NCBI GenBank assembly: GCA_036833455.1
Contig: DAITPU010000002.1
Coordinates: forward strand, 16,812-80,811
Origin: a bacterium
GTDB lineage: Archaea > Nanobdellota > Nanobdellia > Pacearchaeales > GW2011-AR1
Direction of reading: 5' to 3'
Length of the DNA stretch: 64,000 nucleotides
Under the pieces are notes generated by a model. The model was given only the letters and a program-made list of their open reading frames with translations. It did no database searches and was not told the origin of the DNA. A program made the translations under genes and the position numbers. Below, one piece after another: positions 17,826 to 64,000 of the stretch. Every line of letters begins with the position of its first letter. The first letter of the stretch is position 1.

Positions 17826-17865
17826 TTAAAAGAATATTTAAACATTTATGTTTAATTTTATTTAA

Positions 17866-20138: not shown

Positions 20139-20172
20139 GAAAAAGAATAAATAAACTAAGAGTTATAAAGTT

Positions 20173-23634: not shown

Positions 23635-23661
23635 CTTCTTTTCCTTTATTTAATTAGTAGA

Positions 23662-24549: not shown

Positions 24550-24550
24550 T

Positions 24551-25174: not shown

Positions 25175-25289
25175 TGAATCTCCTCCTACAGTATGCTTGG
25201 AATCAGTCAAGAACTGTCGACTTACCAAGATGTAGTTAATTGGATATTCTTTTTATAAGAAAAAGGTTTATAAAAGTTTTGATTGCCTT

Positions 25290-25919: not shown

Positions 25920-26003
25920 TTCTTCACCTTAATTTGATTATTAAGAGAATTATTTAAATGTTTTTATGGATCAAAAGTCCATTTTTAAAATAAAAAAAAT
26001 AGT

Positions 26004-26375: not shown

Positions 26376-26484
26376 TTTATATACCTCCTTTCAGTTCTAT
26401 AATTAACTAAAAATTTTTCTATTTAAAAGAAAGATGGAATTTAAATCCATAATCCTTTAAATATTAGGATCTCTTGTTTAATTT

Positions 26485-27159
26485 ATGCCGCCGGGAATGA
26501 TTGGGTCTTTTGCCCAAATTGGAGCCAGTAGTGAAATTCTTTATTCATTTGTAATTATAATTTTTAGCTTAATGATCTATCTTGGAACTAAAGAAATTTA
26601 TAATCTTAGTTCGGATAAAGGAATTGGATATTTTCGAGATGCTTTTTTATTTTTTTCTGTTGCATACTTTTTGAGAGCAATAATTAAATTAGCCCTAATT
26701 AATTTTAATCTTCGTCCGAAAAATTTTGAATATTTCTTTTTAATACAAGAGATTTCTATTTTATTATTCATGTTCTTTAGTTCTATTGCTATTTTTTCAC
26801 TTCTACAAGGAGTTTTAGTTAAAAAGTTTAAATCTCTAAATACTTCAATCTATTCTTATTTATTTGCTTTTTTAATTTCCTTTGTTGTTTTTTTCTCTAA
26901 GGTAAAAGAGGTTTACTTTGGAATAAATCTTTTTTTACTATTGATTGTCTTATTTGTTATTTTTTATTCCCATAATTATTCTGAATCTAAAGATAATCTT
27001 TTCTATATAGTTTACATTTTATTATCCTTTTTTTGGATTTTGAATATTTTGGACACTTTGATTCCTCAATTTTTACAAAACCTTCAACTCTTAATTTATA
27101 CTTTATCTACACTGACTTTTTCATTTATCGCATATAAAGTTTTAAGGAAGGTGGGTTAA
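26485..27159 (+). CDS. Polytopic membrane protein, unknown function
   Basis: 224 aa, ~6 TM helices; stop overlaps start of next gene (ATGA). Confidence 0.45.
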   Translation: MPPGMIGSFAQIGASSEILYSFVIIIFSLMIYLGTKEIYNLSSDKGIGYFRDAFLFFSVAYFLRAIIKLALINFNLRPKNFEYFFLIQEISILLFMFFSSIAIFSLLQGVLVKKFKSLNTSIYSYLFAFLISFVVFFSKVKEVYFGINLFLLLIVLFVIFYSHNYSESKDNLFYIVYILLSFFWILNILDTLIPQFLQNLQLLIYTLSTLTFSFIAYKVLRKVG

Positions 27160-27431
27160 TGACAAAAAGAGAAAGATTAGAAATAATAAGGGATATTTTG
27201 AAAATAATAAAAGAAAATAATAATTCAATAAAACCAACTCCTCTTCTAAGAAAATCTAACCTTTCTTCTGAGAGATTTAAGGAATATTACTTGGATTTAG
27301 TTTCAAAAAAAATGATAGTTAAAAGAGTTGACTTTAGAGGAGAAAAAATTATTTCTCTGACAGAAAAAGGATTTAAATTTTTGGAGAAATATAATATTAT
27401 AGTTTCTTTCATAGAAGAGTTTGATTTGTAA
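27159..27431 (+). CDS. Small winged-helix-like DNA-binding protein (putative regulator)
   Basis: 90 aa, helix-rich basic pattern; translationally coupled to the preceding membrane protein. Confidence 0.4.
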   Translation: MTKRERLEIIRDILKIIKENNNSIKPTPLLRKSNLSSERFKEYYLDLVSKKMIVKRVDFRGEKIISLTEKGFKFLEKYNIIVSFIEEFDL

Positions 27432-27469
27432 TTAGAAAGCCTTAAATAGATTAAATTGTCCTTATTTTT

Positions 27470-27763
27470 GTAAGTCAGGGAGCTAACTTTCGAGAATTTG
27501 ACATTAAATTGTCAAGCAATGAAATATGATTGCTGATTCTTGAGGAAGGTCCGCGCACCTCCGACTTTTGTTGGAACAAAACTACGAAGGAAATCTTCGG
27601 CCTCGTGAGGGGTAGCTCTGGTATAGAAACGATCCTATTAAGTTAGGCTGGAACGAGCATCTTGGTTGGTGCAAGGGTAACAAATGTACGCCCGCTTAGT
27701 TAGATGTTAGCACATTCCGTCTGAAAACAGGGAATGACAGAACGTGGCCTACTCTGACTTACT
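27470..27763 (+). ncRNA. rnpB: Candidate RNase P RNA (reduced, ~294 nt)
   Basis: GC-rich island in AT-rich DNA; termini pair (GUAAGUCAG.. / ..CUGACUUAC, P1); GAGGAAGGUCCGCGCA (P4 5' strand-like) and GACAGAACGUGGCCUAC (ACAGAA + P4 3' strand-like); P3-like hairpins. Confidence 0.5.
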
Positions 27764-27815
27764 TTTTTCTTTTAACAAACTTTAAAAAAGAGATTCTTTT
27801 GTTATTTCTATATAA

Positions 27816-27887
27816 GGGAGTGTAGCTCAGGGGGAGAGCACATGACTGAAGATCATGGTGTCGAGGGTTCGAGTCCCTCCACTCCCA
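27816..27887 (+). tRNA. tRNA-Phe (anticodon GAA)
   Basis: Cloverleaf by hand: acceptor GGGAGUG/CACUCCC, anticodon loop CUGAAGA, T-arm GAGGG-UUCGAGU-CCCUC, 72 nt. Confidence 0.85.
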
Positions 27888-27934
27888 TATTAAGAAAAGA
27901 GTAATCTTATAAATATATTTTTCTTGAGTTTAAT

Positions 27935-28474
27935 ATGAGAAAGAATAAAGAGGGTAGTTTTAGAATAATAGCAATAGTGTTCTTTTTAACTATGCTTATT
28001 GCAATTAATTGGGAAAAATGGACTTGGATGAAAAACGGAATACATTCTATTTTAGATCCCACCTTAGGAGCTATGCTTAATTGGAATTTGGCCATTGGTA
28101 TGACTATTGCGGTTTTTTTAATTTCTTTAATCATAACTCTTGTTCAAAAATATACTACAGATCAAGAAGAGCTTAAAAGATTGAAAAAAGAACAGAAAGA
28201 AATTCAGAAAAAGATGAAGGAATTTAAAGACAATCCAAAAAAAATGAGCGAAATACAAAAAGAAAATTGGCCTTTGATGATTAAACAATTTAAACTTGGA
28301 TTGGGAACTATAATTTATACCGGTATTCCTTTTGTTTTATTATTTCGTTGGTTTTATGATTTTTTTGCCCTAATCGGTAGTACAAAAGTTTTAGGAATGC
28401 ATTGGTTCTTATTTTACTTTATAGCGACACTTATTTTCTCAAGTATTCTAAAAAAGAAGTTGGATGTTGCTTAG
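27935..28474 (+). CDS. DUF106 family membrane protein (archaeal Oxa1/YidC/EMC3-like insertase candidate)
   Basis: 179 aa, three TMs flanking a charged coiled-coil (KRLKKEQKEIQKKMKEFK), architecture of DUF106. Confidence 0.5.
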   Translation: MRKNKEGSFRIIAIVFFLTMLIAINWEKWTWMKNGIHSILDPTLGAMLNWNLAIGMTIAVFLISLIITLVQKYTTDQEELKRLKKEQKEIQKKMKEFKDNPKKMSEIQKENWPLMIKQFKLGLGTIIYTGIPFVLLFRWFYDFFALIGSTKVLGMHWFLFYFIATLIFSSILKKKLDVA

Positions 28475-28508
28475 AAAGACTTAAAAACAAATTTAATCTG
28501 AAGGAAAT

Positions 28509-28976
28509 ATGAATCAAGATTTGGAAAGAAAGTTTAAAGTTTTTGAAAGGCAAATAATGCAAATTCAAGAGCAATTACAAGCTGTGGAACAAGCAGTTGA
28601 AGACATGAATAAAGTTTCTAAAGGAATTCTTGAATTGGAAGGTAAAACTGGGGAAGAAATTTTTGCACCAATAGGAAGGGGTATTTACGTTAAAGCAAAA
28701 TTGTTAGAAGAAAATCTTTTAGTAGATGTTGGAGAAAAAAATCTTGTTAATAAAAGCATAAAAGAAACTGAAAAAATAATTTCTGATCAAAGAGTTAAAT
28801 TAGAAGAAATTCATGAGGAACTTCAAAAAGAATTGGAGTCGATTAATGAAGAATTGACTAAAACATTTATGGAATATCAAAATAAGCACGGGCACGTGCA
28901 TAATTCTGATTGCGAATGTGAAGAAGAGTGTGATTGTTCAGAAGAAGATAATTGCGGTTGCGGACATTTGCATTAA
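28509..28976 (+). CDS. pfdA: Prefoldin alpha subunit with Cys/His-rich C-terminal tail
   Basis: coiled coil - two beta hairpins (FAPIGRGIYVKAKLLEEN..LVDVGEKNLVNKS) - coiled coil; tail HGHVHNSDCECEEECDCSEEDNCGCGHLH. Confidence 0.6.
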   Translation: MNQDLERKFKVFERQIMQIQEQLQAVEQAVEDMNKVSKGILELEGKTGEEIFAPIGRGIYVKAKLLEENLLVDVGEKNLVNKSIKETEKIISDQRVKLEEIHEELQKELESINEELTKTFMEYQNKHGHVHNSDCECEEECDCSEEDNCGCGHLH

Positions 28977-29794
28977 TTTTTCTTAATAACCCTTAAAAAG
29001 GTTTTATATTTCATTAATCCGAGTTCGGTGATTATTCCTTTTATGTATTTTCTCTGAATAAGTTCAAAAGCGGGATTTCTTATTTTAATATTAGATTTTT
29101 TAGGAATCTTTTCCCAAACTTCATGAAAATTTCTCTCTTCAATCTTCAAATCTTTAGGAGAATACTTCCAAGAATCTGCAACGATATATAAAGGAATTCG
29201 GTTTATTTTTGCAAGTTTTGAAATTGTCCCACTTCCAACTTTATTTATGACTCCTTTTTTTAAAAGCGCATCTGCTCCCAAAAATATTTTTGTGACTTTT
29301 TTTGTGTCTTGTTTTTTTGAGAGTGCTATGTCCATTGCAGAATCTACGAACATTGTAGTTTTGATTCCTGCAGCCCTTAATTCTTTTGCGGTTTTTCTTC
29401 CTTGAAATAAGGGACGTGTTTCAGTATTATAAACTTCAAATTTTTTTCCCTTTCTCTTAGAATAAATTAGAGCATTGACTACATTTGTTGAATGGCAATG
29501 AGTGTAAATTATGTCTCCATCCTCGATTATTTCAAAAACTTCTTCATTTATTTTTGACTGAGCCAAATCAAAATGAGCCAATAAATCTGAAAAATTTTCC
29601 TTATTAGCTTTTTTTAAAACATTGACTAACATGGGTTCAGTTGGCCTTAGAGAGATTAATTTCCTTTTTGAATTTTCAGTTGGAATTAAAGAATAAGCAT
29701 AAAGTGCATTTTTAGCTATGTTTCTGGCACCTTGAATTTTTATTGACTTTATATCTTTTGAAATCCTATTAAACTCTTTTATTTTTTTCTTCAT
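28973..29794 (-). CDS. eIF-2B alpha/beta/delta family protein (possible ribose-1,5-bisphosphate isomerase)
   Basis: Family signature around THCHSTNV...TETRPLFQGR...GADALLKKGVINKVGS; 273 aa; AMP phosphorylase present at 13470. Confidence 0.55.
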   Translation of the reverse strand: MKKKIKEFNRISKDIKSIKIQGARNIAKNALYAYSLIPTENSKRKLISLRPTEPMLVNVLKKANKENFSDLLAHFDLAQSKINEEVFEIIEDGDIIYTHCHSTNVVNALIYSKRKGKKFEVYNTETRPLFQGRKTAKELRAAGIKTTMFVDSAMDIALSKKQDTKKVTKIFLGADALLKKGVINKVGSGTISKLAKINRIPLYIVADSWKYSPKDLKIEERNFHEVWEKIPKKSNIKIRNPAFELIQRKYIKGIITELGLMKYKTFLRVIKKN

Positions 29795-29828
29795 TCAATT
29801 ATAAGTTTAAAGATATTTAAAAAACTCT

Positions 29829-30824
29829 CTAAAAGAAAATTATGAATCCTAAAACAATTATTATTAATTGGAAGAGATTAATTACAATAGGAACTTCCCA
29901 TTCGTAAGCTTTTCCTTTTATTTTCTTAAGAATAACTATTGCAAGGTGTTCTAATCCATATATCTTATCGTATCTTAAATCTAAACTTCCATCTTTTCTT
30001 ATTTTTCCAAAGCTTTCTTTTTTTAATTTCCCTCTTAATTTCAAAATAACTTCAAGAACATATGGAATAAAAAAGAAGATTGTTATTAATTCTACATTTC
30101 CAATTATGGCTATGCAAGCAATTAATGCCCCTACTGGATAAGTTAAAATGTCTCCTGGGAAAACTTTTGAAGGGTATTTATTAAATATCCAAAATGCAAG
30201 TAAACTTGCAACCATGCATGCAGAAATTAAACTTAACCAAGGATTTCCAGTTATAAAAGTCACTATTGAAAGTGCAGAAAGAAAAAGTATTCCTTGGCTT
30301 GCTTCCAATCCATTATATCCTGCTAAAAAATTAAATGTGGATGTTGCACCAACTATTCCTATCGGAACTAAAACAAGAGGAAACCACAATCCAAAATTAA
30401 TTCCTAAAATATTTGGATCCCCCAAATTTAAAACCATAATTGGAACTGCTGTGAAGATTAGAAATATTATTCTTGATCTATTGCTTAATCCTCTTTTCCA
30501 ACCTAATAAGTCATCGAAGATTCCTATAAATCCTGCAAGAGTTAAAACTCCCAAAATTGCGAGTATTTCTATTATGTGTGTTCTATCATCAAAAATAAAA
30601 GTTCTCAAAGCAATGTAAAGCATGATTGCGATTACGAATCCCATTAGAACTGCAATTCCTCCTCCCTCGGCAACTTCTCTTCCATCTAGCTTATGGATAT
30701 CTTTTCCCACTAATTTTTCTTCTTTTGCCCTTTTGATCCAAGCCGGAATAAATAAAACTGTTATTAAAAATGAAATCATAAGAATCGGTCCAAATAGAAA
30801 ACCTAAAAAAGTTAAATTATCCAT
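29829..30824 (-). CDS. aglH: Glycosyltransferase family 4 polyprenyl-phosphate HexNAc-1-P transferase (AglH/WecA/MraY-like)
   Basis: 10-11 TM, conserved DDxxG (IFDDLLGWKRGL) and NxxNxxDGxDGL-like region; heads the glycosylation locus. Confidence 0.7.
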   Translation of the reverse strand: MDNLTFLGFLFGPILMISFLITVLFIPAWIKRAKEEKLVGKDIHKLDGREVAEGGGIAVLMGFVIAIMLYIALRTFIFDDRTHIIEILAILGVLTLAGFIGIFDDLLGWKRGLSNRSRIIFLIFTAVPIMVLNLGDPNILGINFGLWFPLVLVPIGIVGATSTFNFLAGYNGLEASQGILFLSALSIVTFITGNPWLSLISACMVASLLAFWIFNKYPSKVFPGDILTYPVGALIACIAIIGNVELITIFFFIPYVLEVILKLRGKLKKESFGKIRKDGSLDLRYDKIYGLEHLAIVILKKIKGKAYEWEVPIVINLFQLIIIVLGFIIFF

Positions 30825-30863
30825 GGATTTTAATCAAAGCTCAAGTATTTAAATTTAATTACA

Positions 30864-31742
30864 CTAAAAAAAAGCAGGAGTTAAATATACTTCCATTATT
30901 GCTGCAATTATTAAAATTGATATTGCTAAAAATATTAAAAGGATCATATTTTCCAAAACATGATAAAATCTTTTTCCCCTAAATCCGTTTCTAATGATTC
31001 CAACTCCCAAAATTCCTCCAGCTAAAGCGGCTATGAAATAAGCCGCAATTTCAGGAACTCCGTGAAGCATGTATCTTGCCACTCCAAGTGGGATTTTACT
31101 TAGTTGATATTCACTAAATATTCCTATTGCTCCCGCAATTACACTTGCGTTCCAGGCTAAAATAAAAATTGCTCCTGCACCAAAAATTATTGAAAAAATT
31201 AGGGTGAAAATTAAAACATAAACATTGTTTTCTAGAATTAACATTAATCTTGATCCCTTTGTAATTCCTCCAGTTATTGATGAAGAAGATCCTCCCGAAT
31301 ATTGGTTGACACAATCTTCAACATTTGAAGGGTAATTTATTGAACAATAAGTTTCTATTTGGGCGTTAAGCAAATTGTGATCATGGAGAGCTATGTGCCA
31401 GAAAGAGAAGGCGATAACAAATCCAACGAAAAGCCATATAAGAGCATAAATGGCATCTTTATGAACTTTCCAAACATCTCTAAATCCCTCTATAACCTCG
31501 TCTCTTTTTTCTTCTTTCTTTATAATGTAATACATAAAAGGTAAGGAGAACATAACACAAAAAGTCACAACTATTAAACCTGAAAATTTAGACAAAACTT
31601 GGTCTTGAGTGAAAAAAAGATGGGCCAAAATTAAAGAAAGTGATCCGTAAAGTAACCCGACAAGTAACATTTTCCAGGGTGCTTTTTCTGCTCTTTTTGG
31701 ATTTATTAAGGCCTCTAACATATTTCTATTAGACCAAGACAT
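30864..31742 (-). CDS. Polytopic membrane protein, unknown function
   Basis: 292 aa, 6-7 TM. Confidence 0.4.
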   Translation of the reverse strand: MSWSNRNMLEALINPKRAEKAPWKMLLVGLLYGSLSLILAHLFFTQDQVLSKFSGLIVVTFCVMFSLPFMYYIIKKEEKRDEVIEGFRDVWKVHKDAIYALIWLFVGFVIAFSFWHIALHDHNLLNAQIETYCSINYPSNVEDCVNQYSGGSSSSITGGITKGSRLMLILENNVYVLIFTLIFSIIFGAGAIFILAWNASVIAGAIGIFSEYQLSKIPLGVARYMLHGVPEIAAYFIAALAGGILGVGIIRNGFRGKRFYHVLENMILLIFLAISILIIAAIMEVYLTPAFF

Positions 31743-31771
31743 TTTTTAAATGTTCTTTAATTTAAAATATA

Positions 31772-33136
31772 ATGGACTTTATTCATGAAGGAGGAAAAGA
31801 TTTGAAGGGTCTTTTTAATCGTTTTAAAAAAAGAGATTTTTCTGGAGATACCGGACAAACTATAAAAAATTCTAGCTATCAACTTGCTCAAAATTTAGTT
31901 TTTAAACTTGGAAGTTTAATTTTTACCATAATTGTTGCTAGAATATTACTTCCGGATTTAATGGGATTATATAACTTGGCTTTAACTACGATAATTTTAA
32001 TTTCTTCGTTTAGTGATTTGGGAATTGGGTCTGCATTAATTACTTTTTGTTCTAAAAATATTGGAAATAAAAAATATGGTAAAGCTAAAGGTTATTTGAA
32101 AAAACTATTTGAATGGAAGATTTATCTTCTATTAATTTCTTCTTTAATGATACTAGGGGGGGCTTATTTTATAAGTGAATTTTATTACCAAAAACCTATA
32201 TTTTATGCTCTTTTAGTTGGAGGAATTTATATTCCTGTTTTGGGTTTAATTGGGTTTTTTGAACAAGTTTTCAAATCTGAACAAAATTTTAGAATTCCTC
32301 TATTTAAAGAGATTCTTTTTCAAATTTCAAGGATGGTTATTGTTCCTTTAGCTATTCTCTTATTCATTAGTTCAAGTATTTCTCCAGAAAAATTAATTCC
32401 TGTCGTTTTATTATCTTTAATTTTTGCTTATTCTTTGAGCCTCCTATATTTATTTAAATTTTTGAAAAGAGTTAAATTTTTGAAAACGAAATCTGAAAAA
32501 TTGAACTCTTTGGAAATTAAAGAATTGAAGAAATTTATTTACCCTTTAAGTGCTACCGCAATGACTGGTTTGTTTTTTGGTTACACAGATACTTTGATGT
32601 TAGGTCATTTTATTAGTGCTAAATTTATTGCGTATTACATAGCTGCTTTTAGTTTAGTTGGGGGGGCTACTGCAATTATAGGATTTATGGCTTCGGCAAT
32701 GATCCCTATATTTGCAAGAAAACAAGGTAAAGAATTGGAAAATATTTTCAAAAAGACTCGAAATTTTAGTATTTTTATTTCGCTCTTGGCAGGTATTTTT
32801 ACTTATTTTGTTTCTTGGTATGTTGTTAAATTGACTTATGGTGTAGAGTATCTTCCTGCAAGCCAGGTTTTAAAATTGTTTAGTGTTTTGGTTTTCTTAT
32901 TGCCTATATCTGGGATATATGAAGGTTACTTTACAACTCAAAAAAGAACAAAAGAGCTTGCGATTTTGCTTGTTGGTAGCACAATTTTAAATGTTATTTT
33001 AAATTTTATTGGAATAACTTATGGTTTGAATAATTTTGGAGAAATGGGTGCTGTTTATGGAGCATGCTTTGCAACTATTTTAAGTAGGATTATATATTTA
33101 GGAGGGTTGGTTATTTGGAGAGGAAGAGTGTTTTGA
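31772..33136 (+). CDS. Oligosaccharide flippase (Wzx/MOP superfamily polysaccharide biosynthesis protein)
   Basis: 454 aa, ~12-14 TM, typical polysaccharide-biosynthesis-protein layout in glycan cluster. Confidence 0.65.
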   Translation: MDFIHEGGKDLKGLFNRFKKRDFSGDTGQTIKNSSYQLAQNLVFKLGSLIFTIIVARILLPDLMGLYNLALTTIILISSFSDLGIGSALITFCSKNIGNKKYGKAKGYLKKLFEWKIYLLLISSLMILGGAYFISEFYYQKPIFYALLVGGIYIPVLGLIGFFEQVFKSEQNFRIPLFKEILFQISRMVIVPLAILLFISSSISPEKLIPVVLLSLIFAYSLSLLYLFKFLKRVKFLKTKSEKLNSLEIKELKKFIYPLSATAMTGLFFGYTDTLMLGHFISAKFIAYYIAAFSLVGGATAIIGFMASAMIPIFARKQGKELENIFKKTRNFSIFISLLAGIFTYFVSWYVVKLTYGVEYLPASQVLKLFSVLVFLLPISGIYEGYFTTQKRTKELAILLVGSTILNVILNFIGITYGLNNFGEMGAVYGACFATILSRIIYLGGLVIWRGRVF

Positions 33137-55798: not shown

Positions 55799-55901
55799 TT
55801 CTTTTTTTTTTTCTTTTAAGAGTATGGTTGTTTTTTTGCAGTTCTTTTTGAAAAAAAATATCTTCAAATCTTTTTAGGGATAGGAAGATATTTTCGTAAT
55901 T

Positions 55902-56075
55902 TTTACTCCTTTCTTCTTTTTTGGAAAAGAGATTTGATCCCAATTCCTATGATTAGAAAAAAAGACACGATTCCTCCTACTGCTAGAAAGAATCCTTCCC
56001 ATTTTACTACCTTGATCACCCAATAAAGGAAAATCAAAATGGCAATGAGAATTAGGAAAAAGGTTAGTGTGCTCA
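55902..56075 (-). CDS. Small (57 aa) membrane protein, not in ORF track
   Basis: rc translation MSTLTFFLILIAILIFLYWVIKVVKWEGFFLAVGGIVSFFLIIGIGIKSLFQKRRKE. Confidence 0.25.
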
Positions 56076-56090
56076 TTGTTTTTGTTTTTT

Positions 56091-56477
56091 TTAGTTAAAG
56101 GTTTTCTTTCCCCAGAATTGTCCGAGAACTATTCCAAGAATAAGTGCTAAAAAGGAAACTAGGATGCTTCTGAAAATGATTCCTTCTTTTAGTCCCAATA
56201 ATATGAAAACTACCATACAGATTGCGGCCATGCTTATCCAAATATACCAAAAAAAGGCTATCAGGAATCCTTCCGTTCCAAGAGGATAATCTCTTTTTAG
56301 GATGAAGGCAATTATTCCTGCAAGAGATATTCCTGTAAGAATGTATGGCCAGACATTAGGATCCTTTGAGAGATCTTCTGTTCCCCCAAAAACATTTAAG
56401 GCAAAAAGTATGCCAAAAATAAATAATAAAGCAAGTTCTTTTTTCATAGTTGTGATTTTTGTTTTTTTGTTTGACAT
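56091..56477 (-). CDS. Small membrane protein, first gene downstream of repeat element copy A
   Basis: 128 aa, 3-4 TM; higher-GC codon usage than left part of window. Confidence 0.45.
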   Translation of the reverse strand: MSNKKTKITTMKKELALLFIFGILFALNVFGGTEDLSKDPNVWPYILTGISLAGIIAFILKRDYPLGTEGFLIAFFWYIWISMAAICMVVFILLGLKEGIIFRSILVSFLALILGIVLGQFWGKKTFN

Positions 56478-56487
56478 TAAAAAATAA

Positions 56488-56548
56488 ATAGCACTCGCAT
56501 CATAGCAGTGCTCTTACCAACTTCGCTTGTCGTTCTCAATTAAGAGTT
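56488..56548. repeat. Structured intergenic repeat element, copy A (~60 nt)
   Basis: ATAGCACTCGCATCATAGCAGTGCTCTTACCAACTTCGCTTGTCGTTCTCAATTAAGAGTT; near-identical to copies at 59405, 61482, 62924. Confidence 0.75.
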
Positions 56549-56558
56549 TGGAAATTCT

Positions 56559-58040
56559 TTATTCTATCTGGATAAACATTGTTTGTATTGATCCAGATGT
56601 AGCCGTTATAGGAGTTCCAGCCGGAACAAAGATGACTGCCACATAGCTTCCCGGAAGGGCAACATAATTCCCTCCGTACAGATTTGCTGCAGCATACATC
56701 TCTTGGGCCTTTGTAGTCAGGGCCGGAACACCGCCTAAGGGCAGTCCATTCCATTGGGGTACATCAAAAAGCCATAGGGCTTGTTGCAAATCCCACCAGG
56801 AGTACGACCCAAAATAATCCAGGTGATTATAAAGCCAATTTATTTTCTTCCACCTTTCTTCCCCCCGAGCGAACAGCGGCAACTTGTCTTGATACAGCGA
56901 TGAGTACACATCCATGTTATACGCCACTCCTATGTAAATTAAAGTGGAGTGATCGGCGCAATTGGAAGGATATACTCCATTTTGCAAAATATATCCCGTC
57001 GGTATATTGCTCAATGTTGCATCCACATACCCCCCCATTGTGGATGGTTGAGCAGTAATGGTGTATGTGCACGTGGAGGGCAAATTCATATACTCCGGGA
57101 TTATTACGTCCGGCGGAGTGGCAGGATCATAGCATCCTCCTAAAACAAAATCAACTACTCCGTCGTTTCCTTGAGGAATGTTGGATACATCGTTAAAGGA
57201 AAATTCTTTGAATAGGACATATCCGAACGTTGTTCCTGTCTTCACATAGATGAAGAGTTTAAAGATAAATTCCTCATTTTCATCTAGATAATCTCCATAA
57301 TTCACTGCTAGCTTTTCTCCCTGGACGGAATTCAGAAAAGTGTTCTGCAATACTCCGTTTCTCCACACCTCGACTTTAAATATCGCCGGTACATCGATAT
57401 ACGGTCCGGGGGAAAGACTCCAATTTGCTTGCTGAGAATATAAAGACCCCACGTATTCCGACTTATTTCTGATACAGAAATTTCCGAAAAACCACTGCTC
57501 GCGGATAACCACCTGGTTTAACTGGAAGTACACAAACCCGAAATTTGCGTGGGTTGCAGGATCATAACAAGCAACATCCATTTTGAGTTCATTTTTTTTG
57601 TCTGTGGATACTTGAAAAGTTTTTTCCAAAGGTGTCGTGACGTAGCCGGCAAACGCGCTTCCAATATGAGGTGTAGCAAATATTAAAACATCATCACCCA
57701 AATTATTTGGTGTGTTGTTGTTGTTATACACAAGGAATTCACTTATGAGGTGTGTTCCGGCAGGTAATTTTATTGAGGATGTGTATTTGTTCCCCCCTAC
57801 ATTAAAAATCGGAATCTCCTGAAAATTCCCCTGGTTTATTCTCAACCGGACATAATCCGCTCTCAAACCAGAGCAGATGACAGTATCGATCTTTGTGATT
57901 GGGCCAGATTTCTGAGAAAGGTTATTAGTTCTGTTCTCCACTTCAATTGAAACTTCAAAAAGTTCTGAAAGTGGAGTATCTTCCTTTTTGCATCCAAAAA
58001 GCAAAAGGAATGGAACAAGCAAAAAAAGTTTTGTTTTCAT
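56559..58040 (-). CDS. Lipoprotein with bacterial-type lipobox (LLLFGC), 493 aa, unknown function
   Basis: MKTKLFLLVPFLLLFGCKKED signal/lipobox; GC-richer codon usage; conserved start-proximal motif AAAAAACTTTTAACAC-ATG. Confidence 0.55.
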   Translation of the reverse strand: MKTKLFLLVPFLLLFGCKKEDTPLSELFEVSIEVENRTNNLSQKSGPITKIDTVICSGLRADYVRLRINQGNFQEIPIFNVGGNKYTSSIKLPAGTHLISEFLVYNNNNTPNNLGDDVLIFATPHIGSAFAGYVTTPLEKTFQVSTDKKNELKMDVACYDPATHANFGFVYFQLNQVVIREQWFFGNFCIRNKSEYVGSLYSQQANWSLSPGPYIDVPAIFKVEVWRNGVLQNTFLNSVQGEKLAVNYGDYLDENEEFIFKLFIYVKTGTTFGYVLFKEFSFNDVSNIPQGNDGVVDFVLGGCYDPATPPDVIIPEYMNLPSTCTYTITAQPSTMGGYVDATLSNIPTGYILQNGVYPSNCADHSTLIYIGVAYNMDVYSSLYQDKLPLFARGEERWKKINWLYNHLDYFGSYSWWDLQQALWLFDVPQWNGLPLGGVPALTTKAQEMYAAANLYGGNYVALPGSYVAVIFVPAGTPITATSGSIQTMFIQIE

Positions 58041-58182
58041 GTGTTAAAAGTTTTTTGTGAAAAGGATTAAAACTCTTCTGCAACATAGACTTAACTTACT
58101 AAATTCCGTCACAGTGGTTCCCTATTTTTTTATAGCGATTGGATTCAACGCTCACAATTTCTTCTCAATTAAGAGTAAAGAG

Positions 58183-58212
58183 GTTGGCGACGAGATTCGA
58201 ACTCGTACCTTT
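58183..58212 (-). other. tRNA 3'-half-like fragment (T-arm + acceptor 3' strand), no 5' half found
   Basis: rc GGUACGAG-UUCGAAU-CUCGU-CGCCAACC; upstream sequence does not fold into D/anticodon arms. Confidence 0.35.
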
Positions 58213-58304
58213 TCTTCTCTCCGTGCGTGGGATCTCTGCCGTAAAAAGAAAAACGCTAGGGAGGAAGAGAGAAGAAAACTTCTACTTAAAATACGCCAAC
58301 CATT

Positions 58305-58634
58305 TCAATCACATAAATTCACCCTGTTCTTTTCATCCTCTTCTTTCATTCTGGATATCCAGCCCGAAAGAGGAGAAAGTTCTGAATCTAAAACCATCTT
58401 ATGATCCGCACGATAAAGAATAATTCTGCCACATTTGCAGAATTTTATCCTGTCGTCGTACCAATCTGTTCTGGAATTTGCCTTTCTTCCAGACCGAACT
58501 AGGACTTTTAGTCCGTCCGGGTCGGAAACTTCATAGTATGTTTTTGATCCTTGGTTCTCAAAAACAAACCTTATTTTCCGAATTGAATACTTCATTGGAT
58601 CTCCAATCCTAACACACTCTTTTAAAATATTCAT
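58305..58634 (-). CDS. Hypothetical protein (island)
   Basis: 109-aa ORF, overlaps next gene start/stop (operon-like). Confidence 0.4.
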   Translation of the reverse strand: MNILKECVRIGDPMKYSIRKIRFVFENQGSKTYYEVSDPDGLKVLVRSGRKANSRTDWYDDRIKFCKCGRIILYRADHKMVLDSELSPLSGWISRMKEEDEKNRVNLCD

Positions 58635-58891
58635 TCTGCCCTCCTTTCCAGTTTGAAGTTAAAGATGTGTTGGCCTTCTTTCCGGCGTGAAGCCTTTTTG
58701 TCAAACTCCAGGGAGAAAGAGTCGGCCGGAAATATCTTGGAGAGTTCTTTCACAAGAGAGCTCTTTGAGCTCACTCTCTTAATGAAATTTCCTCTTTCTT
58801 CAAAAGGAACTATGCTCAAAGAGGACGACTCGGGGTGGAGCTGAAAAGATCCCTCTCTTTTTAGGAGGACGAATTCATTTTTCTTTCCCAT
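58631..58891 (-). CDS. Hypothetical protein (island)
   Basis: 86-aa ORF in tight tandem array. Confidence 0.4.
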   Translation of the reverse strand: MGKKNEFVLLKREGSFQLHPESSSLSIVPFEERGNFIKRVSSKSSLVKELSKIFPADSFSLEFDKKASRRKEGQHIFNFKLERRAE

Positions 58892-58902
58892 GATTTTAAT
58901 TT

Positions 58903-59214
58903 TTAGTTGATTGTAATAGCTGATTTGTTTAAAGGGGTTAAGAAATAAATTACTTTTCCGTCTTCCGACGAAAAGGAAGAAACTCTTCGCAATTTTTCCT
59001 CTAAAAGAAAAATTATTTCTTCTATTGCCTCGTTTGGATTTCCGTTCCTTTTAAGAGTGGTTTTTCCAAAGATAGAAGTTAAACTTTTCTTTATTTCCTC
59101 TTTAGAGAGAAAAATTCCTTGAGAAAGGATTGATATGAGATAGGCCATTTCTTCTTGATAAGGAGAAGATGGATGCCTTTCCTGTAAAAAAATTCTAAAA
59201 TTTTGCTTTTCCAT
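58903..59214 (-). CDS. Hypothetical protein (island)
   Basis: 103-aa ORF. Confidence 0.4.
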   Translation of the reverse strand: MEKQNFRIFLQERHPSSPYQEEMAYLISILSQGIFLSKEEIKKSLTSIFGKTTLKRNGNPNEAIEEIIFLLEEKLRRVSSFSSEDGKVIYFLTPLNKSAITIN

Positions 59215-59226
59215 AATTAATTTCGA

Positions 59227-59367
59227 TTAATCTTCCAAACAGCATTTTTTTCGGGCCCAGGCATTCCTTTTTTGAAGAGAAAGTATTGCTCTCCTATATT
59301 GAGCTGCCTCTTTTTTTTCGAGACATTTTTGGCGAAGGGCCTCAATTTTTTTTTGAATTTTTTTCAT
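59227..59367 (-). CDS. Small basic protein (46 aa) directly downstream of repeat copy B
   Basis: MKKIQKKIEALRQKCLEKKEAAQYRRAILSLQKRNAWARKKCCLED; start preceded by AAAAAACTTTTAACAC. Confidence 0.35.
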   Translation of the reverse strand: MKKIQKKIEALRQKCLEKKEAAQYRRAILSLQKRNAWARKKCCLED

Positions 59368-59404
59368 GTGTTAAAAGTTTTTTTGTTAAACATAAAATTA
59401 AAAA

Positions 59405-59464
59405 ATAGCACTCGCTCACAGCAGTGCTCTTACCAACTTCGCTTGTCGTTCTCAATTAAGAGTT
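59405..59464. repeat. Structured intergenic repeat element, copy B
   Basis: ATAGCACTCGCTCACAGCAGTGCTCTTACCAACTTCGCTTGTCGTTCTCAATTAAGAGTT; overlaps stop of 59452..59703. Confidence 0.75.
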
Positions 59465-59703
59465 GGCTGCATCTTAGATTGAATTATTATAAGATTCCTC
59501 TTGAACCTCTTGCGATTAAAGGTCCAGAGAAAACTTTCAAACAAGAAGTGCATTGCTGCAAATCCATAATGGGCGATTCCGGTTAGGAAAATTACGAGAA
59601 AGAAAGTTAAAAAATTAGCTCTCTTCTCTTTCAAACCTTTCCAGGTTCTTCTCCAGAAAATCTTTTCTTTCTGAAGGACAATTTTGAGCAGGCTTGTCTT
59701 CAT
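59452..59703 (-). CDS. Small membrane protein (island)
   Basis: 83 aa, one TM. Confidence 0.4.
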   Translation of the reverse strand: MKTSLLKIVLQKEKIFWRRTWKGLKEKRANFLTFFLVIFLTGIAHYGFAAMHFLFESFLWTFNRKRFKRNLIIIQSKMQPTLN

Positions 59704-60290
59704 GATTTTTTCCTCCTCATGTTCTGGACAATAGCAAAATGAACTGAATCTTTTGGAAGATGCAGATTATATTTCTTATTGATCTTTGGCATTCCTAATG
59801 TTGAACACCAAATGTTTGGAGCTTTCACTGCCTCTTCCTTTGTTATTTCATAATACGGAAGGGGTGAATGAATCTCGGTCACAATAGTTTTTCTGTCTAC
59901 CTCTGAAGAGGAGTCCAGCTTCAAGGAATTACTATCTCTTTCAAAGAAATGGATATTTATCTCTTCATAAGAGAAAGAAAGAGTGCCTCCTTTTGTTCGA
60001 ATTAGAATATTGCTATCCTCTCTCAATAGAGCAAAGTGAGGTGTGACACGGACCATACTATCATTTACCTGAACTGAATCCCCCTCGACAGGCGATAAAA
60101 TTCTTGTTCTCATAATAACTGTCTCTCGCTCTGCGGATTTTGCTCCAACTGCATTTAAGACTGCCATCGGAACGAATGCTATGCCTGCAGCAAGAAGAAT
60201 GATAGTAAACTTCTTCTGGTATGCCCTTTTTCCGAACACCATCGCAATCACGATGATTGCAATTAAGGTGGAAACTAGATATGTTGCCAT
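59700..60290 (-). CDS. Membrane-anchored hypothetical protein (island)
   Basis: 196 aa, two N-terminal TMs. Confidence 0.45.
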   Translation of the reverse strand: MATYLVSTLIAIIVIAMVFGKRAYQKKFTIILLAAGIAFVPMAVLNAVGAKSAERETVIMRTRILSPVEGDSVQVNDSMVRVTPHFALLREDSNILIRTKGGTLSFSYEEINIHFFERDSNSLKLDSSSEVDRKTIVTEIHSPLPYYEITKEEAVKAPNIWCSTLGMPKINKKYNLHLPKDSVHFAIVQNMRRKKS

Positions 60291-60302
60291 TTTTCTTCCT
60301 CC

Positions 60303-61442
60303 TTATTTATCTTGTTTCCACTCTATTCCGGGGCAGTAATCTGTGTAAGCACTTCCAAAATATTCTCCGAATATTCCTAGAAATCCCAGGAAACCCTTCC
60401 AAAAGATTTCGCATCCATTTGCGATAAGACCCACGCAAAGAATATTCCAGAAGAAACTTACGGCCAAAATCTTAACAAAGAACCCATAGATTAACCATTC
60501 CCATAATAGTTTGACCAGAAGATAATAAAAGGGAGTTATAAATATTCCCTTAAGCAATTTCCCATACCAGGATTCTGGGTTAAAAGAATAATATATGCCT
60601 CTGAAAAGTAGGAAAATTAGATAACCCGCGGTTAAAAACGCCGCAATAAGGCCAAATACTTCTCCAAAAACGATTAAGAAACGAATTATTTCTTGACCAT
60701 CCCAGATATAAACTATCCAGGTAATTCCTCTTGTGAGAAAAGTTAACACAAAATAGAGCCCAACAAAAAGGATTGTTGAAACGATGAATCCCGTCACTCT
60801 TTTGGTCCATTTAATGAGCTTGGCCTGTCGACGAATCTTATCTGCTGCAGAATTGCGTGCAGCGGATATCTTTTCTCCAAATTCTTCGAAGATAGGTCTA
60901 AATTGTTTCCTGGGCTTGGGAGGATTTTTCTTCGATATTTCTTCGAGCCTCTTGTTTCTTTTTTCAATCAGTTCGTTTCGTAGAATTATCCAATGTTTTC
61001 CTTTTTTCTCTGCCTCTTTTTTAAGCCAAGAATACATTTTTGAATCCTGCTCGAAAGTTATCCTTCCTCCAAAAATCTCTTTTTGACAAGGTCCTCCTTT
61101 TTCACACCAAGCATCAAATTCTCTCCAAAAGAATTCTCTTTCTTCCCTCATCTGCCTGTCCCATTTTTCATACATTGGTTCCATGAGGTATTTTTCCTGA
61201 AGGAGGAGGAGGTAATTGAAAAATTTTGCGAATAACTTCAGAATGTTCCAAAGAAGAAGAAGAATTAGTTTCACCGGCCCCCATGTAAAGAAAAGGAGTC
61301 CAGATAGGATAGTTAACCAGAAGTAGGGACAAAGATTCCGCATTGTCTCTGGATCTGGAGCCAGATTTCCCAGAATAAACTGGTTCATTCTGTAATGCCA
61401 AGACTTTGTGCTTAGCGTGATTAAATTTATGTGTTCTTCCAT
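60303..61442 (-). CDS. Polytopic membrane protein (island), 379 aa
   Basis: multiple TMs with W/F-rich helices; preceded by repeat copy C. Confidence 0.45.
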   Translation of the reverse strand: MEEHINLITLSTKSWHYRMNQFILGNLAPDPETMRNLCPYFWLTILSGLLFFTWGPVKLILLLLWNILKLFAKFFNYLLLLQEKYLMEPMYEKWDRQMREEREFFWREFDAWCEKGGPCQKEIFGGRITFEQDSKMYSWLKKEAEKKGKHWIILRNELIEKRNKRLEEISKKNPPKPRKQFRPIFEEFGEKISAARNSAADKIRRQAKLIKWTKRVTGFIVSTILFVGLYFVLTFLTRGITWIVYIWDGQEIIRFLIVFGEVFGLIAAFLTAGYLIFLLFRGIYYSFNPESWYGKLLKGIFITPFYYLLVKLLWEWLIYGFFVKILAVSFFWNILCVGLIANGCEIFWKGFLGFLGIFGEYFGSAYTDYCPGIEWKQDK

Positions 61443-61481
61443 GATTGAAAAAGTTTTTTTGTTGATACTAAGTTAATAAAA

Positions 61482-61541
61482 ATAGCACTCGCTCACAGCA
61501 GTGCTCTTACCAACTTCGCTTGTCGTTCTCAATTAAGAGTT
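61482..61541. repeat. Structured intergenic repeat element, copy C
   Basis: ATAGCACTCGCTCACAGCAGTGCTCTTACCAACTTCGCTTGTCGTTCTCAATTAAGAGTT, identical to copy B; overlaps stop of 61533..62006. Confidence 0.75.
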
Positions 61542-62006
61542 GGGGATTTTTTTCTTTCTTTTGAACTCAAAAAGAAGTCCAAGAGAAATTCCTAATATTG
61601 TGAAAAAAGGGATAATCCATTTCCACAACGCAAACGATGGATCAAAATCTGGAAGTTCGTGGAGGGCAGATGTATTTTGAAATGCCGGAATTAGGAATCC
61701 CGGAATAAATCCAAGGAAAAAAAAACTTCCGCTCCAAGAGAGATAGCCCCCTTCTACTTTTACTCTTTTGAAAAAGAGGATTAGAAAGAAGTGGAATATT
61801 ATTCCTATCCCACAACCAACTAAAAGGTAAGGTAGAAATCTAAAATTGGGAACTTCTTCCCAAGGGAAGAGAAGTTTCCAGTTTCCTAATTCTATTCCTG
61901 CTCTTCGAATTAAAAGGTTGAAGGCTAGTGCGCTCCAAAGGAGGCACATGATGGCGATTAAAGAACGAAACTTTGTTTCGTTCAAAAATAGAATCATCCT
62001 TTTCAT
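61533..62006 (-). CDS. Membrane protein (island)
   Basis: 157 aa, 4 TM. Confidence 0.45.
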   Translation of the reverse strand: MKRMILFLNETKFRSLIAIMCLLWSALAFNLLIRRAGIELGNWKLLFPWEEVPNFRFLPYLLVGCGIGIIFHFFLILFFKRVKVEGGYLSWSGSFFFLGFIPGFLIPAFQNTSALHELPDFDPSFALWKWIIPFFTILGISLGLLFEFKRKKKIPNS

Positions 62007-62443
62007 TTTTCCTCCTTTCTTATTTGGATTACTTCCAACATAACTCCTAGAATAGAAAAACAGATTCCTCCGAACCCCAGGAGATAGGAAGTTCCTACTT
62101 TTGCGTTATGGAGAAACTTTGAAAAATGGGTTAAGGAATCTTCAGGATTCACTTCCCATCTGTATTCAAGGTTCATTAAAAGGAACAGAAGATAAATCCC
62201 CAAGATAAATAGGAGATACTTGTATCCTTTTAAGAATGTATACCCCATTCCCTTTCTATTGTAAGGGAGAATCTCCCGCTTGAAGAGGAGCCAGAAGAGC
62301 ACAGTAAAAATGTTCAGGGAAAGGGCAAATCCCCCTGTGCTTAGAAGTCCACGTTCCATTCTTAGGAAAAAAATCATTCCTACGAAAGAAATAATTACTC
62401 CTAGAAGGAGAAAAATTTCGGTTAAATTCTTTTTTGTTTTCAT
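62003..62443 (-). CDS. Membrane protein (island)
   Basis: 146 aa, 4 TM; start preceded by AAAAAACTTTTAACAC. Confidence 0.45.
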   Translation of the reverse strand: MKTKKNLTEIFLLLGVIISFVGMIFFLRMERGLLSTGGFALSLNIFTVLFWLLFKREILPYNRKGMGYTFLKGYKYLLFILGIYLLFLLMNLEYRWEVNPEDSLTHFSKFLHNAKVGTSYLLGFGGICFSILGVMLEVIQIRKEEK

Positions 62444-62465
62444 GTGTTAAAAGTTTTTTTGTTTG

Positions 62466-62882
62466 CTAAATTTTTTCTTTTAAGAAAAGTCTCCTTATGG
62501 GAGGGATCTTTTCAAGGATCCAACTTCCTCCCCAGATAAGGATAAAGACAATTAGTAAGTCCTTCAAAAAGGTAGGGTCCTTGAACATGTAATATGTCCA
62601 GACCATCATTAGAATGGTCATTATTAATAGTGTCAAGAAAAAAATATTTTTTACTTTTCTGTAATTTTCTTTCTCTCTTGACATTGCCCGGACTAGTATT
62701 CCCATTCCAAATAAAAAGATCACAAGTGGGGCTCCTGAAATGCGATAGATATCTCTTTTGGAAAATCCCTCTTGTTCTGCTGCAGAGTCAAATTCCGAAA
62801 ACTTTATTTGCTTTCTGCTCATAGCTTCCGTCGAGCAAGAAAACAAAATTAATGAAATTAAAAAGACAAATAATTTTTTCAT
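62466..62882 (-). CDS. Lipoprotein/membrane protein with lipobox LFSC
   Basis: MKKLFVFLISLILFSCSTEA then 2 TM; start preceded by conserved motif and truncated repeat copy D. Confidence 0.5.
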   Translation of the reverse strand: MKKLFVFLISLILFSCSTEAMSRKQIKFSEFDSAAEQEGFSKRDIYRISGAPLVIFLFGMGILVRAMSREKENYRKVKNIFFLTLLIMTILMMVWTYYMFKDPTFLKDLLIVFILIWGGSWILEKIPPIRRLFLKEKI

Positions 62883-62923
62883 GTGTTAAAAGTTTTTTTT
62901 GTTTAACATAAAATTAAAATAAA

Positions 62924-62959
62924 TAACACTCGCTCACAGCAGTGCTCTTACCAACTTCT
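62924..62959. repeat. Structured intergenic repeat element, copy D (truncated)
   Basis: ATAACACTCGCTCACAGCAGTGCTCTTACCAACTTC then abuts stop of 62968..63747. Confidence 0.65.
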
Positions 62960-62967
62960 TAAAAAAA

Positions 62968-63747
62968 TTATTTCAATTTGAGGATTTGACCCACCCTCAA
63001 TTTGTTCGGATTATCAAGACTATTCAAAACCTGGATTTCCCTCCAGGAAAGCCCGTATTTTTGGGCTATACTTCCCAGAGTTTCTCCTGATTTTACGATG
63101 TGGGAAGTGGGAATCTCTGAGGGGGCAGAGGGGACAGGTGAATCCGACGAAGAAGGCTGTACCTTCCGCTTTGAATAGAGACGGGTATTAGCTATCCAAA
63201 CTCCATCTTGTCCCTCTTTTGATTGGACAAATAAGTTGAGAGTGTAGTTATCATACACCTCATCGAACTTTCCCTGTTCAAAGAGATAAACAAAAATTCC
63301 TCTTTGGAACACAAGGAAATTTCTTTTTCCCAATTTTATTGGGAAGGTGTGATTTCCCGCACTTTCACGGTAATCTCTGTTCTTTAGAGTTTTGATCTCT
63401 TTCTCTTTGTCGAACAGAGGGGAAACTTTTGTGTTTCTTGCGATCAATACTCGTTCGTTTGTTTTTTCAAAAAAGAACATTCTATCCTCGTCCCAAATCA
63501 TCTTCCCTTTTTTCTTCCCTTCTTTGAGAGTAAGGGTAAAACGTTTATTGATCCCCCAGATTTGATCTTCTTCAAACTGGAGAATAAAATCTCCCTGTCC
63601 GTCAAGGTGGATAACATCATATTCCCCCAAAGGAGCTTCTTTAGAAATTCCTCTTTCGATCTTGGAAGTGTTTTCCAACTTCTGGGGGGAGGAGCAACTG
63701 GCGATCATAAAAAAGATCGCGATGGAACAAATTTGTTGTGTTTTCAT
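62968..63747 (-). CDS. Lipoprotein with C-terminal LysM domain
   Basis: MKTQQICSIAIFFMIASCSS lipobox; C-terminal VKSGETLGSIAQKYGLSWREIQVLNSL...LRVGQILKL LysM signature. Confidence 0.6.
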   Translation of the reverse strand: MKTQQICSIAIFFMIASCSSPQKLENTSKIERGISKEAPLGEYDVIHLDGQGDFILQFEEDQIWGINKRFTLTLKEGKKKGKMIWDEDRMFFFEKTNERVLIARNTKVSPLFDKEKEIKTLKNRDYRESAGNHTFPIKLGKRNFLVFQRGIFVYLFEQGKFDEVYDNYTLNLFVQSKEGQDGVWIANTRLYSKRKVQPSSSDSPVPSAPSEIPTSHIVKSGETLGSIAQKYGLSWREIQVLNSLDNPNKLRVGQILKLK

Positions 63748-64000
63748 GGTTGAAAAGTGATTTGGGTTTTGTGAAAAAATTTATTGAATTTCAAGGTTAT
63801 TTCAAGGTATTTCACTTGAAAAATATATTATCGTCTAGCTTATGCTTGACTGTTATTTCTTTCCTAAAAGGTATTTCGCTTCGGAATTTTCATTTCGAAG
63901 GTTTTTCACTTAATCTCTTTGTCGAGTTTAAGTTTTTTCAGTTATTTTCTTTTTCGAAATCAACTTTTTTAGATATTTCAAATACGAATCTTGTTAAAGA

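Follow-up and report, generated by a model that had tools for sequence, protein, structure and literature searches.

A recurrent motif abutting start codons, and linked terminator modules, in a gene island of a Pacearchaeales chromosome: candidate expression cassettes for leaderless mRNAs

The DNA analysed here, referred to as the window, is a stretch of 64,000 nucleotides from an archaeon of the Pacearchaeales (assembly GCA_036833455.1, contig DAITPU010000002.1, positions 16,812 to 80,811), and the subject of this work is a short motif that recurs exactly at start codons within a gene island of this stretch. The window forms part of a 161-kb metagenomic contig (ENA ERZ724101 NODE_25) with archaeal ribosomal-protein and RNA-polymerase genes, and its RpoD protein shares 55-62% identity with proteins named Pacearchaeota or Nanoarchaeota. 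The GC content is about 28% across the window and 36-46% in the island of approximately 8 kb at 55.8-63.8 kb. Together with an adjoining low-GC gene pair, the island splits the canonical cluster S13-S4-S11-RpoD | tRNA-Leu-L18e-L13-S9, to which it is antisense, the interruption spanning positions 55799-64000 of the window and 1255-12243 of L001. It contains 14 open reading frames (ORFs) on one strand, grouped in units each of which is opened by the motif, and four of these units end in a terminator module. Pieces of the island that are 100% identical were found in contigs of two other sequencing runs (three independent runs in all: SRR6007447, SRR26719225 and the source of ERZ724101), and in strains with 95-98% backbone identity the contigs end in the same repeated module. 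An assembly chimera was hence rejected, since the junction carries the same module in independent assemblies and in related strains. In a relative with 61% RpoD identity (L024), another insert, which contains a tyrosine recombinase (Phage_integrase), occupies the same place, and the site therefore looks like an insertion hotspot.

The motif is about 22 bases long and its core, CATGTGTTAAAAGTTTTTT, is present on the plus strand in four exact copies at 58038, 59365, 62441 and 62880; a preliminary description of this DNA had listed the same four copies, with the last one placed a single base off, at 62881. In dinucleotide-preserving shuffles (n=100), allowing up to three mismatches, the core was matched 0.29 times on average and four matches were reached in none of the 100. 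Read in the direction of the genes, i.e. on the minus strand, it takes the form (G)TTWAAC-A6-8-CTTTTAACAC-ATG, and every CAT on the plus strand does correspond, in reverse complement, to the start codon ATG of an ORF on the minus strand, as had been claimed. Four degenerate copies accompany the exact ones. Those at 61440 (catgattgaaaaagttttttt on the plus strand) and 63745 (catggttgaaaagtgattt) had been pointed out before and are real, and two more, at 56445 and 56074, are added here. The eight copies are as follows.

56074..56101, minus strand: motif variant H, CCTTTAACT-A8-CAAAAACA-ATG (ATG at 56076), start of a gene for a 57-aa transmembrane protein
56445..56475, minus strand: motif variant A, GTCAAAC-A7-CAAAAATCACAACT-ATG (ATG at 56447), start of the gene for a 118-aa membrane protein, with a terminator module upstream
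58038..58063, minus strand: motif copy B, exact core, ttttCACAAAAAACTTTTAACAC-ATG, start of the 493-aa lipoprotein gene
59365..59391, minus strand: motif copy C, exact core, GTTTAAC-A7-CTTTTAACAC-ATG, start of a 46-aa gene, the first in a four-gene unit, with a terminator module 35 nt upstream
61440..61467, minus strand: motif variant D, TATCAAC-A7-CTTTTTCAATC-ATG (ATG at 61442), start of the gene for a 379-aa membrane protein, the first in a 379/196/83-aa unit, with a terminator module upstream
62441..62465, minus strand: motif copy E, exact core, start of a 146-aa gene, with no terminator before the copy
62880..62907, minus strand: motif copy F, exact core with A8, GTTAAAC-A8-CTTTTAACAC-ATG, start of a 138-aa lipoprotein/transmembrane gene, with a truncated terminator module upstream
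63745..63773, minus strand: motif variant G, CACAAAACCCAAATCACTTTTCAACC-ATG, i.e. ending in ATCACTTTTCAACC-ATG (ATG at 63747), start of a LysM lipoprotein gene

Copy E takes up all of the 22 nt that separate the TAG of the 138-aa gene from the 146-aa gene's ATG. Neither further motif copies nor further terminator modules were found in the 64-kb window outside the island, and searches with an exact 19-mer of the motif returned five single matches among the GTDB representative genomes and one in IMG/VR (inside a coding region), which is the level of chance.

The start codons that the motif abuts are the true ones. An in-frame TAA lies within the motif (cTTT TAA CAC ATG), so that no upstream extension of the ORFs is possible; several island products begin, at the motif-abutting Met, with Lys-rich signal peptides and a lipobox; and for the 493-aa protein, 12 homologs share the same start residue and the lipobox Cys17 is invariant (alignment A1). 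The alternative of wrongly placed starts, with the motif lying inside longer upstream ORFs, which the preliminary description had named as what would undo its reading, is ruled out by the in-frame TAA, the signal peptides that begin from this Met and the agreeing N-termini of the homologs.

A second regularity concerns ribosome binding. As had been noted before, the motif leaves these starts without a Shine-Dalgarno (SD) sequence: none of the eight motif genes has GGAGG. The motif is present at all eight island genes that follow a terminator or a gap of at least 22 nt, and an SD never occurs alongside it, whereas of the six island genes that overlap the preceding gene or lie no more than 12 nt from it, four carry GGAGG at 8-14 nt upstream (binomial P ~1e-4). 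SD use in the island is confined to promoter-distal genes, at the following sites.

62007..62020, minus strand: Shine-Dalgarno site, aaaggaggaaaa-ATG, of the operon-internal 157-aa gene
before the ATGs at 60290, 59703 and 58634, minus strand: equivalent Shine-Dalgarno sites of island internal genes

The preliminary description had set these starts against those of the archaeal part of the window, several of which show SD-like motifs, and this contrast does not hold. Host genes within operons have GGAG or GGTG upstream, while host genes after intergenic gaps show T at 54-80% at positions -30 to -27 and A at 69% at -24 and -22, with an A-rich stretch before. Host first genes are SD-less, with a TATA box fixed at -30 to -22 from the ATG and leaderless mRNAs predicted, and since island internal genes carry GGAGG as well, the same leaderless-first and SD-internal architecture applies to both. 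It corresponds to the architecture of the GeneMarkS-2 'group D' genomes, i.e. archaeal leaderless transcription with a promoter box about 22-26 nt from the start and ribosome-binding sites on internal genes (PMC6028130).

Upstream of half of the motif copies lies a composite module which, in the direction of the genes, consists of a perfect palindrome CTCTTAATTGAG, GAAGTTGGTAAG, a bulged hairpin AGCACTGCT-GTG-AGCGAGTGCT and then a T-run.

56485..56550, minus strand: terminator module, a 79% copy with an altered hairpin loop, after the 493-aa gene
59401..59466, minus strand: terminator module with palindrome CTCTTAATTGAG, GAAGTTGGTAAG, hairpin AGCACTGCTGTGAGCGAGTGCT and T-run, 100% identical to 61478-61543 over 66 nt
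61478..61543, minus strand: terminator module, the identical copy with the same 66 nt as 59401..59466
62919..62962, minus strand: truncated terminator module, from GAAGTTGG onward, after the LysM gene

The palindrome CTCTTAATTGAG provides a TGA to the 83-aa ORF and a TAA to the 157-aa ORF, the reading frames in which they enter it being different. Each of the four hairpin and T-run modules is followed within about 35 nt by a motif-ATG, and because these four motif copies lie only that far past the hairpin and T-run, the promoter must lie in this short interval. The earlier suggestion of a shared promoter or leaderless-start cassette is compatible with these data, the motif being restricted to the first gene after a non-coding gap, found in four copies about 35 nt past a hairpin and T-run and never combined with an SD. 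No known RNA family was matched by the modules, and a 21-mer of the terminator found nothing in IMG/VR and, in the JGI metagenomes, one chance match that falls within a coding sequence (L020). Over the whole island (55800-64000), 23 hairpin and T-run sites were counted as compared to 7.0 +/- 2.4 in shuffles, while a 20-kb host stretch (12000-31999) holds 9 with 9.5 expected and is not enriched, which hints that the island differs from the host in its style of termination.

The motif is also independent of the genes that follow it. When the 493-aa gene is aligned with its homolog in L013, whose product is 83% identical, blastn similarity of 81.7% extends from the A of the ATG (58040) exactly to the stop codon (56560), and upstream of the gene nothing aligns except for a 30-nt piece of a structured RNA. 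Among the motif copies themselves, similarity fades within the first two or three codons. A duplicated 5' gene module, the other possibility offered in the preliminary description, finds no support on these two grounds. The motif is lacking in the homologs of the 493-aa gene in L013, L015 and L017, and in the phage homologs of the 379-aa gene. Furthermore, the terminators before copies C and D are identical over 66 nt and the motifs differ, while the motifs of copies B, C, E and F are identical and their upstream contexts differ. Terminator and motif hence vary independently, making the motif a discrete element before unrelated genes and not the by-product of one segmental duplication.

A comparison of strains reveals one insertion or deletion that is bounded by the motif.

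56091..56447, minus strand: 118-aa gene, a strain-variable cassette with motif half-copies (AAC-A7-C) on both sides, absent in strains L021 and L023

In L021 and L023 (SRR27710297 and SRR27676559), whose backbone identity is 95-98%, the 57-aa gene is directly preceded by GAGCGAGTGCTATTTATTTAATCTCCTTAACT-A7-CTTTTAAG-ATG (AACT-A7-CTTTTAAG-ATG) behind the terminator module. Past this same terminator, the window has motif copy A, the 118-aa gene, a second half-copy TTAACT-A8-C and then the 57-aa gene. From this arrangement, the 118-aa gene would have been gained or lost by recombination between two motif copies, a single event of this kind being seen.

As regards the cargo, 10 of the 14 island proteins have no Pfam match at E <= 0.01, and only LysM passes the curated cut-off. 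For the 379-aa membrane protein, about 130 homologs with identities of roughly 30% were found, and on three long contigs (L009, L010 and L012) its homolog stands beside homologs of the 196-aa and 83-aa proteins, with genes for RNA ligase, CCA-adding enzyme, DenV, T4 Y10B, NAD-ligase and topoisomerase as neighbours. By gene content, these contigs look like large T4-like phages. In many of their genes, a TAnnTTTG box is separated from the ATG by just 4-5 nt (cgTAtaTTTGtaac-ATG is one such start), and these boxes and their placement point to Bacteroidota-type (jumbo) phages with leaderless mRNAs implied. L009 has, in addition, a second start-abutting motif, ATTATATTAGCWAY-ATG. The 493-aa lipoprotein (gene at 56559-58040, minus strand) belongs to a family with 149 matches in which the lipobox Cys is invariant, as are numerous Trp, Cys and Asp residues, and which corresponds to no Pfam family (alignment A1). 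Its members include proteins from Bacteroidota metagenome-assembled genomes (MAGs) at 40-45% identity, and its nearest members (69-83% identity) are encoded on contigs of 24-34% GC with archaeal-style TATA spacing; the protein is a candidate for an inter-domain transferred surface protein. By these similarities, the cargo is mixed and at least partly common to DPANN-like archaea and Bacteroidota or their phages. No match was obtained with the island DNA in phage and plasmid collections (blastn) or with the 379-aa protein in INPHARED (tblastn), and the 146-aa and 138-aa proteins found no relatives in IMG/VR.

The explanation that we favour, to which we would give about an even chance, is that the motif may constitute the 3' half of composite terminator-promoter cassettes which direct the synthesis of leaderless or very short-leader mRNAs and double as recombination homology for the shuffling of cassettes. 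As the start-proximal half of a standard expression cassette in the higher-GC island between rpoD and tRNA-Leu/L18e, it would act where one unit ends in the conserved hairpin and oligo-T module and the next unit restarts within about 35 nt. The first gene of a unit would have a 5' leader of zero or a few nucleotides and the ribosome would begin on a 5'-terminal AUG without an SD, with the promoter-distal genes being translated via GGAGG. TTTWAT-like A/T stretches are found at -24 to -38 in all copies, overlapping the T-tail of the terminator in four, and this A/T-rich stretch would serve as the binding site for TBP/TFB. The conserved AAC-A6-8-CTTTTAACAC would be a readily melted promoter-proximal and initiator region, and perhaps also an operator for an island-encoded regulator. 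For the 20 identical bases, an initiator or promoter-proximal element, an operator of an island regulator and recent gene conversion are the candidates. As the same 20-66-bp modules stand beside unrelated genes, they would act as homology patches, and recombination between them would add, remove and shuffle gene cassettes.

Several observations weigh against this explanation. With a position weight matrix (PWM) built from host promoters, the island regions score only -4.7 to 1.1 at the native archaeal register, as compared to a host mean of 9.7 once this matrix was rebuilt from 22 clear host promoters. The best match to the BRE/TATA (transcription factor B recognition element and TATA box) pattern of the host is the motif itself, which scores 7.0-9.2 in six of the eight upstream regions and is placed nearer to the ATG than it should be, by 19-20 nt. 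Between CTTTTAA and the ATG, the copies differ in spacing, from 1 to 5 nt, and this speaks against any box that needs a nucleotide-exact transcription start site (TSS). We know of no requirement of archaeal promoters for a conserved region at -20 to -1. No DNA-binding regulator encoded in the island could be shown, and the AlphaFold2 model of a 103-aa protein, with a predicted local distance difference test (pLDDT) score of 56, was too poor to search with. Finally, no close relatives of the island bearing the motif were found and there is no phylogenetic footprint, as the island pieces of other samples are 100% identical and the more distant homologs lack the motif. Bacterial promoter types were considered as well. 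Sigma-70 promoters were rejected, with 19 island sites as compared to 18.4 by chance and no -35/-10 consensus, and so was a group C-type sigma-70 leaderless promoter (a TANNNT -10 box at 6-8 nt from the start), the positions -12 to -7 reading AACTTT.

In a rather improbable alternative, the motif itself is the archaeal BRE/TATA, with the A-run as BRE and CTTTTAAC as TATA, and transcription would begin about 20 nt inside the ORFs, either mis-expressing foreign cargo or driving something else. Host promoters such as acaaCTTTTAAAAAc resemble the motif, and the host PWM performs best on it in six of eight regions (7.0-9.2 against the host mean of 9.7, offset +19/+20). However, its TATA-only score is a modest 4.1 (host mean 7.2), none of the copies has a start codon near +20, the ATGs are established as true starts by the signal peptides and the N-termini of homologs, and the ORFs are intact in an island retained in several strains. 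A leader-based alternative, also quite unlikely and marginally less so, places the TSS in or before the A-run, such that the motif would be an SD-independent translation initiation region within an unstructured A/U-rich leader. The RNA of the motif region is predicted to be unstructured and single-stranded in all folds, copy E stands in for an SD in its 22-nt intercistronic gap with no terminator, and variable spacing to the ATG would be harmless to such a leader. A-rich leaders raise initiation in SD-poor organisms (PMC6847099). Yet 20 identical bases are more than an unstructured leader requires, the copies stand at unit starts in seven of eight cases and not before internal genes, and the same element uses canonical SDs for its internal genes; archaea are also not known to have ribosomal protein S1.

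The least improbable of the alternatives, though still unlikely, is a relic Bacteroidota- or phage-type leaderless promoter imported with the genes. It would consist of a -7-like AACTTTTA at -12 to -5 and AT-rich tracts near -18 and -28, and transcription would start 4-5 nt past the box, on the A of the ATG. The TAnnTTTG element had been proposed for comparison in the preliminary description and was a reasonable lead, because relatives of the 379/196/83-aa module sit in phages with TAnnTTTG 4 nt before the ATG. In the -7 element of the Bacteroidota sigma-ABfr promoters, T-12, A-11, T-8, T-7, T-6 and G-5 are near-invariant, with 4-5 nt to the TSS (PMC6847099). Read in the leaderless register, AACTTTTA (A A C T T T T A) agrees at four of these six positions in every copy: A-11, T-8, T-7 and T-6 match, and other bases replace the near-invariant T-12 and G-5 throughout. 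The register is the same as that of TAtaTTTGtaac-ATG and TAcaTTTGtcac-ATG in the phage loci L009, L010 and L012 with homologs of the module, the AT-rich -18/-28 tracts match the description of F. johnsoniae promoters (PMC6847099), the 493-aa family has its Bacteroidota MAG members at 40-45% identity, the products carry lipoboxes and a LysM domain, and hairpin and T-run sites are enriched in the island (23 versus 7.0) and not in the host (9 versus 9.5). Against it stand, besides the two missing bases, the strong SDs on internal genes, which are not a Bacteroidota trait (PMC6847099), the archaeal-type TATA spacing on the low-GC contigs of the nearest 493-aa relatives (69-83%), a putative island tRNA gene whose 56-nt insertion in the anticodon loop would be an archaeal trait, and an ATG spacing that varies by up to 4 nt; the identification with TAnnTTTG is therefore not maintained. 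The least probable alternative takes the repeats to be primarily recombination sites (integron-attC-like or otherwise site-specific) or recent neutral duplications, with no role in expression. It would account for the entry of ORFs into the terminator module in two different frames and for the one indel bounded by motif half-copies, and a tyrosine recombinase does occur at the same chromosomal locus in a relative. Nevertheless, no R''/R' pair (RYYYAAC/GTTRRRY) with L boxes is present, GTTAAAC fitting copy F only, there is no integrase in the 21.5 kb of L001, and the units contain up to four genes. Placement at first-gene ATGs behind terminators is what is predicted for an expression signal, and a neutral duplication would co-conserve the flanks, which are not co-conserved.

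Among described systems, the closest analogue of the favoured terminator-promoter cassette appears to be the promoter-early stem-loop (PeSL) cassettes of T4-type phages, which are composite repeats of a stem-loop terminator and an early promoter, ending at the SD and start codon of ORFans (PMC2839356, PMC4122927). PeSLs give rise to mini-circles and bring about modular shuffling (Arbiol et al. 2010, PMC2839356; Comeau et al. 2014, PMC4122927). The island shares with them small repeats of terminator hairpin and putative promoter in one orientation, located between ORFans and ending at the downstream start codon, and indels between close relatives that are bounded by the repeats (in the island, the single event of the 118-aa cassette), and one of its gene modules has homologs in T4-like (Bacteroidota-type) phages. 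It differs in that it lies in a Pacearchaeota chromosome between rpoD and tRNA-Leu and not in a phage hyperplastic region, that its cassette has neither a sigma-70 -35/-10 consensus nor an SD, with the ATG abutting the repeat, and that its hairpin is upstream of the presumed promoter, while that of PeSLs is inside. With the archaeal leaderless units of group D, for which the host shows the textbook pattern, the island has in common first genes without SD or leader and internal genes with GGAGG, but its conserved part is at -20 to -1 and not at the -22 to -35 of BRE/TATA, and its TATA-like stretch is weak and variable in distance. The likeness to sigma-ABfr promoters (PMC6847099) consists in a box 4-5 nt from the ATG in the same register, with A-11, TTT at -8 to -6 and AT-rich upstream tracts, whereas T-12 and G-5 are lacking in the island copies, SD sites occur in the element and the host is archaeal. 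Two further classes were rejected. Of an integron attC (R''-L''...L'-R', at least 57 nt, with IntI), only CCAAC/GTTGG 25 nt apart and GTTAAAC in one copy could be recognized, with no tyrosine recombinase in the 21.5 kb of L001, and a miniature inverted-repeat transposable element (MITE) would have terminal inverted repeats, of which there are none.

Leaderless starts are ordinary in archaea, and what is new here is an element-specific, gene-independent 22-bp box together with PeSL-like behaviour in a DPANN chromosome. A broader proposal, which we put forward tentatively and regard as somewhat doubtful, is that the island represents a DPANN analogue of PeSL mobile cassettes, whereby surface-protein genes of mixed origin, some from families that also occur in Bacteroidota and their T4-like phages, would each receive a standard module of terminator and leaderless promoter. 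The module would make these genes expressible in the archaeon and allow their shuffling in a chromosomal hotspot beside the ribosomal-protein/RNA-polymerase operon, the -20 to -1 box being a new archaeal promoter-proximal or operator element. If true, it would illustrate how an archaeon with a reduced genome and a dependence on a host can domesticate foreign cell-surface genes and reshuffle them via one plug-in promoter/start and terminator, would carry the idea of mobile regulatory cassettes over from phages to archaeal chromosomes and would offer a concrete short DNA element for probing the poorly known promoter grammar of DPANN archaea, i.e. the region from TATA to the start and leaderless initiation. 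If it fails, these would be ordinary leaderless promoters made conspicuous by recent duplication.

Additional features were observed in and next to the island. Just past the end of the window, L001:1554-3972 has a host-like GC content and encodes two proteins, one a coiled-coil protein of 148 aa and the other a DUF87/HerA-like ATPase of 656 aa that weakly matches Zot and Pox_A32, and the 148-aa gene has a host-type TATA 22-31 nt upstream of its ATG. This gene pair may be the backbone of an integrated plasmid or virus bearing the higher-GC cassettes. An 18/19 direct repeat, AAAACCTTTAAyTAAAAAA, occurs at L001:1445-1463 on the tRNA-Leu side and at L001:11936-11954 (window ~56088-56106, the end of the 118-aa gene); they may represent the att sites of a 10.5-kb element, or they may be nothing more than a pair of TATA-like boxes, and no att sites are claimed. 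In a 320-nt non-coding stretch from the DUF87 ATPase gene to the LysM gene, three to four iteron-like direct repeats (G)YGAAAWACCTT are located at 63790-63915 of the window (= L001:4085-4250), which could be a replication origin or a regulator array of the integrated element. Upstream of the 493-aa gene, a focused Rfam search, and only this search, found a match to the tRNA model at 58182-58300 on the minus strand (37.3 bits, gathering threshold 29), whose anticodon loop contains a 56-nt insertion and whose anticodon stem is lengthened by a perfect helix of 11 bp. Neither a clear anticodon nor a clear bulge-helix-bulge motif can be seen in this match, and ARAGORN was negative. In L013 and L014 (L013:1640-1760; L014:1-110), the insertion has kept its core, CTTCTCTCTTCCTsCCTwGCG...GAGAGAAG, in front of the lipoprotein gene that is 83% identical, with other helices in place of the acceptor and T-arm, and the segment 58182-58300 is an unexplained structured RNA.

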